From contig NC_086380.1 of NCBI RefSeq assembly GCF_036588685.1, forward strand, positions 33,520,313 through 33,530,312: DNA of 10,000 nt. Reading direction: 5' to 3'. The translations under genes and the position numbers were made by a program. Position 1 is the first letter of the stretch, and each line of letters starts with the position of its first letter. Shown here piece by piece: positions 2,303-10,000 of the stretch. Under the pieces are notes generated by a model that saw only the letters and a list, made by a program, of their open reading frames with translations, ran no database searches and had not been told where the DNA came from. The DNA comes from Mytilus trossulus. Its lineage: Eukaryota.

Positions 2303-2325
2303 TCAAAGTGATGGATATCACTCAT

Positions 2326-2351
2326 GGAAAGATTAGAACAGTAGTTTAAAT
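2326..2351. repeat. Left TIR-like end of the insertion: GGAAAGATTAGAACAGTAGTTTAAAT
   Basis: Reverse complement of 3582-3606 is GGAAAGATAAGAACTTGTTCTAAAT. About 19/25 positions match, including the identical leading GGAAAGAT and AGAAC. The left copy lies 23 bp inside the junction (2303-2325 = tcaaagtgatggatatcactcat, itself a small hairpin agtgat/atcact). Confidence 0.45.
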
Positions 2352-2420
2352 TATTTCATATTAAGGTATGTTGGGGGAAAATGAACATTTATAGAGCACT
2401 ATTGCTGAAAATTGCATTTA

Positions 2421-2626
2421 CAGAGGGGGGAAAGGACCTTTATCAGGACTCCGGGAGCGAGTGTTTTTTAAGCTCGGGATTTTGGGATTAACCCTTTCGG
2501 AATCCGGGAATCCTTTTTTTCTGATTTCGGGACGTCGGGATTTACTTTATTTAAATTCGGGACCTCAGGATTTCTTTTTTTTAAGTCCGGGATTTCGGGA
2601 CCAGGACCCCTACTATCCCCCCTCTT
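2421..2626. repeat. GC-richer ~200-bp module: ~30-bp minisatellite (about 5 copies, consensus roughly tTCGGGAynTCGGGATTT + T-run + aag) bracketed by a perfect 9-bp inverted repeat AGAGGGGGG / CCCCCCTCT
   Basis: Seen directly. TCGGGA(T/C) or TCCGGGA pairs at ~2449, 2473, 2497, 2526, 2556 and 2585, each followed by a T-run. Inverted repeat arms at 2423-2430... more precisely 2422-2430 and 2617-2625. MITE-like, but no target-site duplication identified. Confidence 0.6.
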
Positions 2627-3581
2627 AACAGCAGGTTTTTAGAAGGAAATAATGCTTTTCCATTGAGAGGATAAAATGAGCTCAAATTAAATAATATGAA
2701 TCTCTAAATTTTCACAATTTTATTTAAACTGCAGTTTATATCTAATCTAAATTAATATGTTGCCAGTTCAGAACATGTTTTAAAAAATCAAAAAAATGCA
2801 AAATCCGTCTAGTAAATGTTATAAACTATCCTTGTAAGACAAAAAAATAGACCAACAGCTAAAAGCTTTAAAGTGGCAACAAATATAATCTAAAAATGTT
2901 GTTTTGGGGCATTTTGTAAGTTGAAACAGAGGTTATATGGCATTGAAAATACTTGAATACCTTTTATATATTCATATTTATATTCATATTTCATTTTTTT
3001 TAAATCTTGTTACTCCATTAATCATTTAAATATAATCTTTCAGATATAATTTACAGAATCACTGTATGTAATGTAGATCAAAAGTAATTGGCAATAAATA
3101 AATCTATAATCCTTATGAATATCAAACATCTAATATACACATTTGTGTATTCAATTATGAGGTCAAATACTTGTGTATTAAGAATTATATCATATTTTGT
3201 GTGGTCTGTATAATTATGTAAGACTGAGGTTGATAGGTAATGTGGTCAATTTGATTGGCAGTTTAGGAGGTGGGGCATTGTAATTAAAGGTCCACCTTGT
3301 CTCTGATTGATTAGTGATAATGACAGTGGTCAATCATACTAGTGGAATCAATACCCATTTACCTAATCAAAATGTTTTTAAAAAAGCCTGCACATCAACA
3401 CACCTTAATTACATACAATCTTGAATGAACTGCTCCAATAATATACCCAGTTTTTTTTCAGTTTATTTGTGTAGTATGTGCATATTCATGAGAACAATAG
3501 GGAACTATATTTTAGTGTGAATACATTTAGTAACAGTAGCTAACCTGTCCTGTTGTTAGGGAGGGTGGTGCCTAAGTAAAG

Positions 3582-3606
3582 ATTTAGAACAAGTTCTTAT
3601 CTTTCC
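3582..3606. repeat. Right TIR-like end of the insertion (inverted partner of 2326-2351), abutting the resumption of the satellite at 3607
   Basis: See the partner feature. It ends exactly where the satellite sequence aaaaatgagggttctttttatatgg resumes. Confidence 0.45.
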
Positions 3607-5205
3607 AAAAATGAGGGTTCTTTTTATATGGCCTTCCAAATACCGTTTCGATCCCTAACATCACTGAAGAGTCATTTATTGTCGAAATCAGGATATGGTG
3701 TACTAAAAAAATATTGACACCGAATGTTTGTGGCACAACATACTGTCCACAAGTTAACAATTTTTTTTTCTGTGACGTATTAAATTTATATTAGGATCCA
3801 TTTTGTTACATCTTGTGATCAATTTTATTTGGCAATCGTCAATGGCAGTCAGCAGGGTTAAAGAACATCAGTTGTTCGACCTGTTAGTCAAATGCGTTTT
3901 GTTTAAATATACTTTTTCACTCTTTTGGTCTTTTGGAAAATGTTGTTTGTGCTGTTTTTAGACCCTTTTACAACGAAATTTGTTTTACATGCACACGTAT
4001 AAAAACTGCGGTTTTTATCCAACGCAGTCATAGGTTTGAACGTAGTTTTCAATTTAGACTCGTTTATATTTTTTGTTTGGGCATGTATCATATTTTCCCT
4101 CCGGTTTATATGGTCCGTTCATCCTATATATTGACTCTTAAAATTCAAGAGTTAATCTAAAAATGAGGGTACTTTCTCTAAAAATGAGGGTACTTTTTAT
4201 ATGGCCTTCCAAATACCGTTTCGATCCCTAACATCACTGAAGAGACATTTATTGTCGAAATCAGGATATGGTGTACTAAAGAAATATTGACACCGAATGT
4301 TTGTGGCACAACATACTGTCCACAAGTTAACAATTTTTTTTTCTGTGACGTATTAAATTTATATTAGGATCCATTTTGTTACATCTTGTGATCAATTTTA
4401 TTTGGCAATCGTCAATGGCAGTCAGCAGGGTTAAAGAACATCAGTTGTTCGACCTGTTAGTCAAATGCGTTTTGTTTAAATATACTTTTTCACTCTTTTG
4501 GTCTTTTGGAAAATGTTGTTTGTGCTGTTTTTAGACCCTTTTACAACGAAATTTGTTTTACATGCACACGTATAAAAACTGCGGTTTTTATCCAACGCAG
4601 TCATAGGTTTGAACGTAGTTTTCAATTTAGACTCGTTTATATTTTTTGTTTGGGCATGTATCATATTTTCCCTCCGGTTTATATGATCCGTTCATCCTAT
4701 ATATTGACTCTTAAAATTCAAGAGTTTAAAAATGAGGGTACTTTCTCTAAAAATGAGGGTACTTTTTATATGGCCTTCCAAATACCGTTTCGATCCCTAA
4801 CATCACTGAAGAGTCATTTATTGTCGAAATCAGGATATGGTGTACTAAAGAAATATTGACACCGAATGTTTGTGGCACAACATACTGTCCACAAGTTAAC
4901 AATTTTTTTTTCTGTGACGTATTAAATTTATATTAGGATCCATTTTGTTACATCTTGTGATCAATTTTATTTGGCAATCGTCAATGGCAGTCAGCAGGGT
5001 TAAAGAACATCAGTTGTTCGACCTGTTAGTCAAATGCGTTTTGTTTAAATATACTTTTTCACTCTTTTGGTCTTTTGGAAAATGTTGTTTGTGCTGTTTT
5101 TAGACCCTTTTACAACGAAATTTGTTTTACATGCACACGTATAAAAACTGCGGTTTTTATCCAACGCAGTCATAGGTTTGAACGTAGTTTTCAATTTAGA
5201 CTCGT
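3607..5205. repeat. Tandem satellite array 2: same monomer family. Two near-complete units (552 and 569 bp) plus a 478-bp truncated third unit
   Basis: Unit starts at 4159 and 4728. The first unit begins at the second 21-bp sub-repeat (monomer position 22). The unit 2/3 junction lacks 4 bp (gagttaatctaaaaatg -> gagtttaaaaatg). The array ends inside ...tttagactcgt at 5205. Confidence 0.95.
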
Positions 5206-5216
5206 ATATATATATA
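5206..5216. repeat. (AT)n microsatellite at the right edge of the satellite array
   Basis: atatatatata directly follows the truncated monomer. Confidence 0.8.
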
Positions 5217-5342
5217 CAACTCGTCTAAACATCAACCCAACAATGTTGTAGGGTTGTCACTGACTCAGGGGCCAATGATGGTGATACATGGCTGTGTACA
5301 TAATGTATATACAACTCGTATAAACATCAACCCAACAATGTT
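5211..5342. repeat. Pair of 37-bp direct repeats (tatatacaactcgt[c/a]taaacatcaacccaacaatgtt) at 5211-5247 and 5306-5342, 95 bp apart, 36/37 identical
   Basis: Seen directly. They flank a 58-bp unique spacer (gtagggttgtcactgactcaggggccaatgatggtgatacatggctgtgtacataatg). Confidence 0.85.
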
Positions 5343-5451: not shown

Positions 5452-5455
5452 GTGT

Positions 5456-5521
5456 GTTACAGTAAATAGGTGAAATTCGGAATTACATGTAATTAATAAA
5501 ATTTCGGAATTACCTGTAATT
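5456..5521 (-). repeat. Left copy of an ~66-68-bp inverted repeat pair (partner 9244-9311). Contains the perfect 14-bp palindrome AATTACATGTAATT and a dense set of GTAATT/AATTAC motifs
   Basis: The reverse complement of 9244-9311 aligns at about 56/68 (~82%). The first 40 bp are 36/40 identical (gttacagtaaata[g/c]gtgaaatt[c/a]ggaat...gtaatta) and the last 11 bp are 11/11 (tacctgtaatt). Confidence 0.75.
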
Positions 5522-6954
5522 CCCGATACACTTAGCAAATACAAGTAATTCCTGAATCTGTCTAGTTATAACCAGTAATTACTAGTTTTTAAATGATTTT
5601 TTTAAAGGTGATAAAACAATGTTATAATATGGCAAGCTGATGAAAAATAAGGATAAAACAGTGAACATTATCAAAAAGTGATCAACCTAAAATGTACCTT
5701 TTTGTTATATTAAAGGGTATTAGGCACTGTTAGCTATATAATGCAAAAAAATACATTATATGTTTTGTTGTTGTTCAATCAAATTATAATTCGATTTTTT
5801 TAAGATAAGTTTGGGTCATTTTTTTTTTCTCAAAATAAGCTAAGAAACATGGCTGATGAGTTATTCACTTGCAAATGAATAATTCAACCTCAATGTAACC
5901 GTTAAGCTGGAGCTGGGTTACACATGTATTCAGCTATTAAAAAGGATAGAATGACAAAATTGAAAGTAAAACAAAAGGGATGCACCATTTGGTTTACTGG
6001 GTCGATCCACAATAAGCTCATTCACATACATGTAAAGGTAAATACGACATTCGTTTGATGTGTTTGAGCTTTTGATGGTGCTATTTGATTAGGACTTATA
6101 GTTATAAATTGACTATGAGGGTCGGTTGAAATACAGATTTACGACAAGAGATGATTTCAGCATCCCAATTGTGACTTTTCCTTTTTTGTTTTTCAAATGG
6201 TGAAGTTGAAATCATCACTTCTTAAATTTTACGGACGCCATCACGAGTTGGCTGACCGTTATGGAATATCCGTTTCACATATGACACTGGATATGTTGCT
6301 TATGTCGTAGCTATAATCCATTTCTCTTTTCACGAAAGTGGGACAACCGAATTAGACTATGTACCGGCCCTGTAATAACACGAGTATTACGACGAGTGCC
6401 ATATGTGGAGCAGGATCTGTTTTCCCTTACGGAGCACCTTAGATCCCCCCCAGATTTTGGTTGGATTCGTGTTGCTTTTTCTTTACTTTTTCATGTTGTG
6501 TCTTGCAAGTCTTAACCTTTTTTCAGCCATGGTGTTGTCAGTTTATTTACGATCTATGAGTTTAGACTTGGAACAGGCACCTGCGTTATGTGCTGTGGTA
6601 AACCAGTTTTGCCGAATACACACACGCCATTTTTCCCACTCAATAATTTATATGTGTGATTAATGATGTAAAACCAATACAGCACTGAACATATTGTAAA
6701 ATTCCACCCTAAAGCACCAAACCTACCTAGAAATAATGATGTTCATGTGTGTCTGTCTGTTTGCAAGTCAGGACTAGTTTCTTCATAAGGATTGGTGGTT
6801 TCGATTTGTTATGCGACACTATCAATATGTCAATAGCCGCAGAACATCGAGTAAACATGTACATGTATTTTAATTCTTAATGGGTAATCATTTTTGCTAC
6901 AAAAAAGGTGTTGATAACTGCTATATGACATGTGCAGTACAATTTTTGTACAGG

Positions 6955-6978
6955 TATATGTGAGCCAAAATTTGTTCC
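6955..6978 (+). repeat. Left terminal inverted repeat of the 1.23-kb element
   Basis: See the element feature. Confidence 0.7.
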
Positions 6979-7030
6979 TGTGAAAAAAGTTCCAGTGGAA
7001 CTAATATGTTCTGGGAGAACTTTTTTCACA
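6979..7030. repeat. Hairpin with perfect 14-bp arms (tgtgaaaaaagttc ... gaacttttttcaca) and a 24-nt loop containing its own small palindrome gttccagtggaac, immediately inside the left TIR
   Basis: Seen directly. Arms at 6979-6992 and 7017-7030 are exact reverse complements. Confidence 0.85.
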
Positions 7031-7080
7031 GACAATTTCTATATAATTTGTTCCATCTATATGAAATAAGTTCCACACTT

Positions 7081-7244
7081 TACCTGGTGAAATAAGTTAT
7101 GGGTTGGTGAAATTTGTTCCTTACCTAGTGAAATAAGTTCCATGTTTGTGAGATTTGTTCCTTACCTGGTGAAATAAGTTCTGGATTTGTGAGATTTGTT
7201 CCTCATCTGGTGAAATAAGTACCTTGTCTATGAAATTTGTTCCG
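7081..7244 (+). repeat. Subterminal tandem repeat: 4 copies at an exact 41-bp period (tacctggtgaaataagttNNNNgtttgtga[a/g]atttgttcct)
   Basis: Units at 7081, 7122, 7163 and 7204. Each holds one GTGAAATAAGTTCC-type half and one GTGAnATTTGTTCC-type half. Degenerate copies continue outward to ~7046. Inverted copies of the same motifs fill 7999-8182. Confidence 0.85.
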
Positions 7245-7760
7245 CTGGTTAAACAAGTTATGTTACATACTGAGCACTTGTCATCAGTGAGTTTAAAGTC
7301 ATTATAAAAAACATGTTTTATAATTGATAAGGTAATAAATAAAAAGTGTAAACATCAAATTTGGATCATGTGGAGTAAAGCAAAAGTTAATAACATTATT
7401 CTCAATAAATAATACTAAAAATGACACTTATGAACCAGGAAAGAGTAGAATAAATAATAATAAAAGTCATTCCGAAAAAAAGAATTATAATAGTTAAAGA
7501 TGAATATTTGTACTTTTTCAAAATGGACAAAGTGACTGATCAATTATATTTCAAGACATAGAAAAACAAAAGACACTCTCTTTAAAAACTGTGAAATGAC
7601 AATAGCTAAGTACATGTATGATTAGAACACCCATAACAGATCAACAGGAAATTAAAGGAGGTGGAATACCACTTCAATGATAAAATAGATACAAATTATG
7701 AAACATTATGATTCTCATCGCTTTTATTTCTTATCTTCATCCTAAAGTCATGCCTTTAAT

Positions 7761-7828
7761 CAATCTCCCATGCAGAGTTCTCGGTCCTTGAGAGAGAGCA
7801 AGGACCGAGAACTTTGCATGGGAGATTG
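7761..7828. repeat. 68-bp near-perfect palindrome (30-bp arms, 29/30 complementary, 8-bp AG spacer agagagag), flanked by the 9-bp direct repeat GCCTTTAAT at 7752-7760 and 7829-7837
   Basis: Left arm caatctcccatgcagagttctcggtccttg. Right arm caaggaccgagaactttgcatgggagattg. One mismatch (C/T). The identical 9-mers abut both arm ends. Confidence 0.9.
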
Positions 7829-7998
7829 GCCTTTAATTGCAAATGTACCCCATGCAAGCACAGTACTTATTTCCTGTGAAACAGGTTTCATCAGAACATT
7901 TTCATTGATTTCTATAAAATACCTTCTTTCAAAACTAATATCACACAAACTTAATTCACTTTTTTTAAATTTTAATATTGGAACAAAACTCATACATT

Positions 7999-8182
7999 GT
8001 CATAGTGCTGTGATTTTTGTTCCGGAACTTATTTCACACTTGGTTAGAAAATTAGTTCTGGAACAAATTTTATAGTGCTGGAACATATTTTCTGTGACAT
8101 AAGTTCCGCTGGAACATATTTCCTATGAAATTTGTTCCAGAGGAACAAATGTCACGCCGGAACAAATTTTTTGTTACATATA
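7999..8182 (-). repeat. Right subterminal arm: inverted copies of the GTGAAATAAGTTCC / GTGAAATTTGTTCC motifs with repeated GTTCC-N(0-3)-GGAAC palindromes (gttccggaac, gttctggaac, gttccgctggaac, gttccagaggaac)
   Basis: Seen directly. ggaacttatttcac is the reverse complement of gtgaaataagttcc. The same palindromic motif class occurs in the left arm (gttccagtggaac 6990-7002, gttctgggagaac 7009-7021). Confidence 0.8.
8159..8182 (-). repeat. Right terminal inverted repeat of the 1.23-kb element
   Basis: See the element feature. Confidence 0.7.
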
Positions 8183-8881
8183 CAGGCTTAAGTTTGGAGG
8201 TCTTTAGAAAGTCATATAAAAGAGACACTTAAAGCCATCATTTTGTATAATTTTATTTATGAAGAATGTCACCTTCAAGTTGCTTATTCTTTAGTTTTCT
8301 ATGTCATGTGTCATTGGTTCTATTGTTTGTCTATTTGTCTTCTTTCATATTTAGCCAGGCGTTGTAAGTTTATGTTCAATTTATAAATTTGACTGTCCCT
8401 CTGGTATCTTTCGTCCCTATTTCAATGCAAATTCTAACAACAGAAGTCTTAGTTTAAAATAATTTGTCTGATGAATTAAATTATTTCATATGTCAAGTTA
8501 GTCTGATTGATATGCAAAGTATGCTTATTAATAGAGATTTTAATGTTTCCTGATGAATAATCATTATCTTTCAACCATATATGGCATAATAGAATGTCTA
8601 TCATCAAAAAGAACGAACGAGAATTCTCACAAATGTATTTCTCATATATTGATTATATGATTGTCTTGCATGTTGAAAACGATTTTTAGCGAGTTTCAAA
8701 AATTATAAAGCAACCATTTCCCTATTTCAATTCACAAACAAATTTATAAAACATACAGTCTTTGATTCCTTTACATATACGTAATCTCTACAATCCCTAC
8801 CCCGTTACTTTATTATTTGGTATATTGATGTATGTCTCAATTTTAATACAAATTAAAATATCAAGTTTGTGAATAGCTGTA

Positions 8882-9243: not shown

Positions 9244-9311
9244 AATTACAGGTATTTACTGAATTGTGTAGTAATTACGTGTCATTCCTAATTTCACGTA
9301 TTTACTGTAAC
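9244..9311 (+). repeat. Right copy of the inverted repeat pair. The two copies bracket ~3.86 kb (5456-9311)
   Basis: See the partner feature. Either TIRs of a ~3.9-kb composite element, or two inverted copies of a short dispersed repeat. Confidence 0.75.
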
Positions 9312-9691
9312 ATATACACCTGTGAATCTGCAGTCACAACTCTAAGGAACTAATTACCTAAAAATCTGACACCTATAATTTCATTGTGTAATTTAAAAGA
9401 ATCAAGCTGTATTAAAGAAATGTGGTACACAAATGTTTCTTGTAAACCATTTAAAAGGAGTAGGTCCGGTAAGGACCGATTTTGGCCTCAAATTTTAGTT
9501 TCATCTGATGAAAGATTTTGACCACTTTTTAAACACTTAAGTTTCTATTTCAATGGTTTCGATTAATTTATGTGAAAGATTTAAACTTATTTCGTCATTA
9601 AAAACGATCCGATTCAAGCTCAAATACGGAAAATCTACTAAATATGCGGAAAAATGTCACTTTTCACATGGTTTTTGTCCAAAACGAAATT

Positions 9692-9788
9692 GGCCCCATC
9701 CGTGTTCATCCTCAACCTTTATATATGTTATGTATCATCATCAAATACAACTTCCATTTCAATATTTTGGATGAACACGAATGTGGCC
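9692..9788. repeat. Inverted repeat with 20-bp arms (ggccccatccgtgttcatcc / ggatgaacacgaatgtggcc, 18/20) separated by a 57-bp AT-rich loop
   Basis: Seen directly. Arms at 9692-9711 and 9769-9788. Confidence 0.7.
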
Positions 9789-10000
9789 ACTTTCTTTATA
9801 CACGGAAACCGTCTAAAATTTAAGTAAAATGCTGAAATTGTTACGATTTCAGTAATTTAGCATGACTTTATGGTGCTAGTACCCAATATATGTGCATTGT
9901 ATTTTCAAAAACAGTCCATATTTATGTAGCAGAACCATTTTACTATCCAATAAATAACTAAAAGTTTACATTTTAACAATTTTGTAAAACTGCCATATTT

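Follow-up and report, generated by a model that had tools for sequence, protein, structure and literature searches.

A 68-bp palindromic insertion with a 9-bp target-site duplication: a probable miniature DNA transposon consisting of terminal inverted repeats only, or the remnant of one

Short palindromes framed by direct repeats pose a simple question: did the palindrome arrive where it is now found, and if so, was it the palindrome itself that moved? We explore this question for a 68-bp hairpin in a 10-kb window (the whole stretch of DNA that was analysed, 10,000 nucleotides), which is AT-rich, repeat-dense and non-coding overall and in which no transposase ORF was found. The initial annotation had described a near-perfect palindrome of 68 bp with an exact, abutting 9-bp direct repeat, and both the sequence and a repeat finder agree with this description. 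Its parts are the following.

7752-7760, plus strand: left 9-bp target-site duplication, GCCTTTAAT, abutting the left arm (from the sequence)
7761-7790, plus strand: left 30-bp terminal inverted repeat (arm), CAATCTCCCATGCAGAGTTCTCGGTCCTTG (repeat finder)
7791-7798, plus strand: spacer or hairpin loop of 8 bp, AGAGAGAG (sequence and folding)
7799-7828, plus strand: right 30-bp arm (terminal inverted repeat), pairing with the left arm at 29/30 positions (repeat finder)
7829-7837, plus strand: right 9-bp target-site duplication, GCCTTTAAT, abutting the right arm (from the sequence)

The palindrome proper (7761-7828) adds up to 30 + 8 + 30 = 68 bp and leaves no room for a gene. Run over the 10-kb window, the repeat finder returns an arm pair of 30 nt each, 29/30 (97%) complementary with 8 nt between them, the sole mismatch being G7775 against T7814. 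The arms begin with CAATC, are free of internal repeats and are unique in sequence: beyond the two arms themselves, the 30-nt arm is found nowhere in the 10-kb window when 3 mismatches are allowed. With a G+C content of about 52%, the palindrome is set off from surroundings of 26-32%. The 9-mer GCCTTTAAT stands in direct orientation at both arm ends and has no third copy in the 10-kb window, where 0.12 would be expected by chance, and the 9/9 match of the flanks has a probability of about 1.3e-5 under the local base composition. Of the window's 10 inverted repeats of the hairpin type, only the 68-bp palindrome has an abutting direct repeat of more than 2 bp.

The palindrome is located within a larger repeat, referred to here as the host element, which is in turn enclosed by a further inverted-repeat pair.

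6954-8183, minus strand: host element, 1.23 kb, non-coding (repeat finder: terminal inverted repeats, subterminal repeats GGAACAAATTT / GGAACTTATTTCAC)
7080-7243: 41-bp tandem units (TTACCTGGTGAAATAAGTTC...GTGAGATTTGTTCC), a subterminal block of the host element
5455-5498, plus strand: left arm of an inverted-repeat pair of 44 nt (89% complementarity), reading TA followed by CAGT...
9269-9312, plus strand: right arm of the 44-nt pair, ending in ...ACTG followed by TA

The 41-bp tandem units are conserved in two further copies of the host element, L006 and L007, which are introduced below; a weak, sub-threshold match of these units to the Rfam family Gut-1 is almost certainly meaningless. A target-site duplication of the host element itself was sought in the flanks of the window copy and of L006, and gave only the 2-bp candidates AT and AA, which are too short to trust. 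The 44-nt pair, reading TA-CAGTAAATAGG...CGTATTTACTG-TA, encloses the host element in about 3.85 kb without a transposase ORF, and its ends resemble those of Tc1/mariner-type elements, flanked by a putative TA duplication. It is solely this one pair that suggests the outer level of the nesting claimed initially.

Is the palindrome an insertion into the host element or an intrinsic part of it? Other copies of the host element provide the answer. In an exhaustive HMMER search, the minus-strand ORF 7760-7993, which crosses the palindrome, was used as a query against 1.84 billion representative proteins. This gave two short proteins (P0004 and P0005) that match up to query residue 56, where the palindrome's first codon lies, and stop there; the 90% cluster of one of these matches contributed three more proteins (P0007-P0009). 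All five lie on contigs (L004-L008) that represent further copies of the 1.23-kb element, from aquatic metagenomes and one NCBI assembly, L008 for example from the Baltic Sea water metagenomes of project PRJEB22997. The same search also returned P0006, a 4925-aa pomegranate protein, which was rejected as it is matched through low-complexity stretches.

The five copies share 89-93% identity with the window copy and 90-96% among themselves. L006 aligns over window positions 8178-6946, the full span of the element, with flanks unrelated to those of the window, and L004, L005 and L007/L008 are partial copies, again with flanks that differ from the window. Since the flanks are different except for one that is common to L007 and L008, the copies represent four independent loci. 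L007 and L008, which have this flank in common (L007 1-54, L008 1-96), stem from different metagenomes and differ by about 4% and by several indels; the two contigs are probably one locus in two populations or species, or else a segmental duplicate.

All of these copies (5/5) have a single uninterrupted 9-mer and no palindrome. In the minus-strand reading, L004-L008 run TTTGCA ATTGAAGG(A/C) ATGACT, where the window runs TTTGCA ATTAAAGGC (68 bp) ATTAAAGGC ATGACT; on the plus strand, the homologous site in the five other copies is one GCCTTCAAT / TCCTTCAAT. The gap in the multiple alignment measures exactly 77 bp (68 + 9), and the BLAST alignments break at window positions 7829/7830 and 7760 and overlap by the single 9-mer. 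Furthermore, both 9-mers of the window carry a copy-specific base, a plus-strand T in place of the C found in the other five copies, and such a common substitution is expected if an already diverged site got duplicated. The single 9-mer, the lack of the palindrome, the 77-bp gap and the common substitution together prove that the palindrome is a real insertion with exact boundaries and a 9-bp target-site duplication. This is what the initial annotation had proposed for the 1.23-kb element, naming a host copy with one uninterrupted 9-mer as decisive and, as one refuting case, a palindrome in every host copy together with an arm that occurs nowhere else: the former is now at hand in five copies from four independent loci, and 0/5 carry the palindrome.

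The reverse reading, in which the palindrome was lost from the other copies, would need a precise and footprint-free loss in all of them and is not credible. The insertion is also younger than its host copy, that is, it took place after this copy diverged from its relatives: the arms differ at 1/60 bases and the duplication at 0/18, as compared to a divergence of 7-11% between the host copy and its relatives.

Where do the arms come from? A local origin through template switching or snap-back was rejected, as neither the rest of the window nor the host family contains anything similar; every 30-mer of L004-L008 differs from the left arm at 13 or more positions. That the arms are not copied from nearby sequence also argues against a templated insertion of the polymerase-theta type. 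In a fold-back copy, moreover, the second arm would be followed by the 9-mer in reverse-complement form, and a direct repeat is seen. An insertion of the piggyBac type was likewise rejected, since taking TTAA as the duplication would leave the element without inverted repeats at its ends. A foreign, G+C-richer segment with flush 30-bp inverted ends and an exact 9-bp duplication points to cut-and-paste integration at a 9-bp stagger.

What, then, was integrated? The reading we prefer, with a probability of roughly one half, is that the 68-bp unit is a miniature cut-and-paste transposon composed only of 30-bp terminal inverted repeats on either side of an 8-bp spacer, which moved as 68 bp with the help of a Mutator-like or Foldback-type transposase. 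Such a transposase, supplied in trans, would make a 9-bp staggered cut in the target and join the 68-bp element to it, and repair of the two single-stranded gaps would then yield the duplicated GCCTTTAAT. The moving unit would most likely be the palindrome itself, as in the case of the 80-bp human MADE1, and the mover most likely an enzyme of the Mutator-like or Foldback type. One physical consideration counts against mobility at this size: a duplex of 68 bp is stiff, and pairing its two ends would need an unusual geometry.

A duplication of 9 bp is typical of Mutator-like and Foldback elements, the Mutator-like range being 8-11 bp, and Merlin elements duplicate 8-9 bp. The putative superfamily is read here from the 9-bp duplication, which falls within the Mutator-like range and fits Merlin too. 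Mutator-like elements are moved by MURA-type DDE transposases that recognize their ends, and no transposase is encoded in the window. Mutator-like MITEs share the 9-bp target-site duplication with the 68-bp element, while known MULE derivatives usually measure hundreds of bp. The Drosophila Foldback (FB) elements resemble it in their all-inverted-repeat look and their 9-bp duplication; their arms, however, extend over hundreds to thousands of bp with tandem sub-repeats, and arms of 30 bp without sub-repeats place the 68-bp element outside Foldback elements proper. The assignment to Mutator and foldback elements suggested initially is in keeping with the length of the duplication and fails for true Foldback elements on the structure of the arms. 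All mollusc genomes surveyed are reported to contain Mutator-like elements, and bivalves are rich in MITEs (PMC10294476).

The closest architectural counterpart is MADE1, an 80-bp human MITE made up of two 37-bp inverted repeats around 6 bp (PMC1784062). Its layout of 37 + 6 + 37 bp is much like the 30 + 8 + 30 bp observed here, both being near-palindromic with a stable hairpin from either strand (PMC1784062), and to call the palindrome one of the smallest mobile units conceivable, as had been done, overstates the case. The two also differ in several respects. MADE1 duplicates TA and is a Tc1/mariner element derived from Hsmar1, whereas the 68-bp element duplicates 9 bp; MADE1 exists in thousands of copies and its autonomous parent is known, whereas the 68-bp element has one known copy and no known parent; and there is no sequence similarity between them. 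Palindromic MITEs of the Tc1-mariner type are recognized by a TA duplication and mariner-type ends, and the duplication is GCCTTTAAT and the arms start with CAATC in our case. Hallmarks of MITEs in general include a short non-coding sequence with terminal inverted repeats, a target-site duplication and a demonstrable unoccupied site, all of which are found here (68 bp, 30-bp arms, 9 bp and five empty copies). MITE families are further marked by multiple copies in different flanks and by ends shared with an autonomous, transposase-encoding element; of the 68-bp unit, a single copy is known.

Did the 68 bp move as such, or are they what is left of something longer? A less likely but serious alternative is that a longer transposon with the same ends inserted with the 9-bp duplication and later lost its internal sequence, in which case the 68-bp unit never moved. 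The loss could have occurred, for example, by interrupted gap repair after excision, with the nascent ends joined at an (AG)n/(CT)n stretch, and the complementary AG/CT spacer would suit such a microhomology join. Such a loss explains the unoccupied sites, the 9-bp duplication and the foreign arms equally well, and as no second copy of the palindrome is at hand, an in-place collapse from a longer element is equally allowed; it also fits the failure to find another 68-bp copy. Internal deletion is an established origin of non-autonomous DNA transposons (PMC1784062, discussion). Deletion derivatives such as Ds from Ac or deleted P and Mu elements retain both ends and the original donor-site duplication, as observed here, but they usually keep longer and unequal internal pieces, so that only two inverted repeats being left would be an extreme case. 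A random deletion, furthermore, has no reason to spare exactly 30 + 30 complementary bases and 8 others, whereas this symmetry is expected of a mobility-selected unit and matches MADE1. We prefer movement as a 68-bp unit because keeping both ends and almost nothing else fits selection for mobility.

Are there further copies of the palindrome? DNA scans of prokaryotic genomes and viral contigs returned none. A scan of the JGI metagenomes for 21-mers of the arm gave one match only (L001), which we judge to be due to chance, about 0.5 chance 21-mer matches being expected in this collection of roughly estimated size. The match (L001 237-257) is a single arm-like 21-mer without an inverted partner in a thioredoxin-type coding sequence, WCGPCRVLGP, with mismatches at 9/30 arm positions, and it was rejected. 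In none of the loci retrieved does any sequence come closer to the arm than 9 mismatches. On the protein level, a six-frame peptide query of the palindrome against 5.8 billion proteins produced 550 word candidates, none at E <= 10; a word-indexed search with ORF 7770-8075 gave no match; and the exhaustive search with the read-through frame against 1.84 billion representatives did not reveal the palindrome a second time. Four ORFs of the window (7770-8075 and 6403-6663 on the plus strand, 886-1074 and 7760-7993 on the minus strand) found no exact match in public assemblies, hence the locus is not on record in other public assemblies. A literature search for the arm, the satellite described below and the element ends as text strings found no paper, and we know of no autonomous partner with these 30-bp ends.

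Because the scanned collections hold only traces of the source organism's DNA, this null result for the palindrome is a weak one. The same protein collections gave five host copies, and a palindrome family, if any, is therefore probably not far commoner than the host family. We consider it unlikely, though a case worth stating, that the 68-bp palindrome represents a currently or recently mobile family in the source organism, presumably a bivalve, moved by a Mutator-like transposase acting on ends 8 bp apart. If so, it would be the smallest known eukaryotic cut-and-paste unit with a 9-bp duplication, and its copies would be sources of perfect-hairpin small-RNA loci, much as miR-548 arose from MADE1.

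Three further explanations are much less likely than the two transposon readings. Could a hairpin have been captured without any transposase? Snap-back DNA or a reverse-transcribed hairpin RNA might be ligated into a staggered break, or the insertion might be carried out by a LINE endonuclease and reverse transcriptase, with fill-in generating the 9-bp repeat. The insert is indeed a perfect hairpin, and the target holds TTTAA, resembling the nick sites of LINE endonucleases. What makes such a capture improbable is that a poly(A) or any other 3' tail is missing, that both arm ends are flush with the duplications, and that this kind of repair usually deletes bases instead of producing a 9-bp duplication.

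Still less probable is a functional structured RNA gene, i.e. a microRNA or hairpin-RNA precursor intrinsic to the locus. A very stable hairpin is predicted from either strand, with a folding energy of -62.1 kcal/mol for the RNA in its context (z = -11.7 vs shuffled controls) and of -34 kcal/mol for the DNA (z = -15.4 vs shuffled controls), and there are weak Rfam matches to mir-3130 (35.8 bits, gathering threshold 95), MIR869 (31.9 bits, threshold 330), mir-4650 (25.8 bits, threshold 80.7) and MIR1023 (24.1 bits, threshold 90). Every one of these scores is far under its gathering cut-off and reflects only the perfect stem, and a fully paired stem of 30 bp is unlike conserved animal precursors. 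As the hairpin is absent from 5/5 related host copies, it is not intrinsic to the locus. An RNA gene would nevertheless be compatible with a transposon origin, as a later use: when transcribed from either strand, the palindrome would give a near-perfect 30-bp hairpin that could feed small-RNA pathways.

An assembly or library artefact (for example from a palindromic linker, from an overlooked hairpin adapter or from Tn5 insertion in vitro) has a very slim chance, for although palindromes are prone to artefacts, in-vitro tagmentation by Tn5 yields 9-bp duplications and the exact ORF look-ups found no independent assembly of the locus in public assemblies, the arms contain neither the Tn5 mosaic end nor any adapter or linker known to us, they differ by one base unlike synthetic linkers, and missed-adapter chimeras copy long local sequence and not a foreign 30-mer.

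The palindrome also bears on the annotation of open reading frames. It had been noted that it fabricates two ORFs starting on opposite arms. This is correct for the plus-strand ORF 7770-8075, whose ATG lies at 7770 inside the left arm; the minus-strand ORF 7760-7993, however, starts at 7993 in the host element, crosses the palindrome and stops at 7762-7760. In palindrome-free host copies, the equivalent minus-strand ORF stops four codons past the insertion site. The palindrome thus extends one spurious ORF from 60 to 77 aa and creates the start of another. Both ORFs are artefacts of the insertion and not genes, and neither deserves gene status in an annotation.

The palindrome is most probably a miniature DNA transposon made of terminal inverted repeats only, or a remnant of one, of the known type exemplified by MADE1. 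Its nested insertion is otherwise ordinary transposon biology, distinguished by the very small size of the unit and by the clean evidence. It tells us that a unit consisting of only two 30-bp ends can reside in a genome as a product of transposition. If further copies exist, they would set a bound on how small elements mobilized by transposases with a 9-bp stagger can be, and would add from bivalves an example of transposon-derived hairpin small-RNA loci. For now, we are looking at a single insertion into non-coding DNA full of repeats, and nothing indicates a host function.

The rest of the window is rich in repeats of other kinds. A tandem satellite with periods alternating between 573 and 569 bp occupies positions 1-2302 and 3604-5250, in at least 7 units of 95-100% identity, and the satellite carries a 21-bp internal duplication, AAAAATGAGGGTACTTT. 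One satellite unit is broken between ...TTTCTCTAA and AAAAATGAGGG by about 1.3 kb of unrelated, very AT-rich DNA (2303-3603), probably a further inserted transposon, with imperfect 22-nt inverted repeats at 2318-2339 and 3593-3614. A dispersed repeat with ORF-like stretches (...KFYGRHHELADRYGISVSHMTLDMLLMS and a stop) is found at window positions 6190-6500 and 8280-8418 as well as in L002 (3864-4525) and L003 (1722-1978), with 70-78% identity between the window stretches and ENA and JGI metagenome contigs; it is presumably a common bivalve repeat. In the window, the 1.23-kb element and other sequence are inserted into it and separate its two parts. The window looks eukaryotic, and its repeat setting, along with the Baltic Sea copy L008, suggests a bivalve, probably a mussel, as its source. 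The longest inverted repeat in the window, 63 nt at 9662-9724 / 9756-9818 with 71% complementarity and a 31-nt spacer, may be another hairpin-type miniature element. Finally, 23 nt just beyond the right end of the host element (8199-8221) are 83% complementary to positions 32-54 and to the corresponding segment of every satellite unit, a match that hints at a shared origin of the satellite and a dispersed element.
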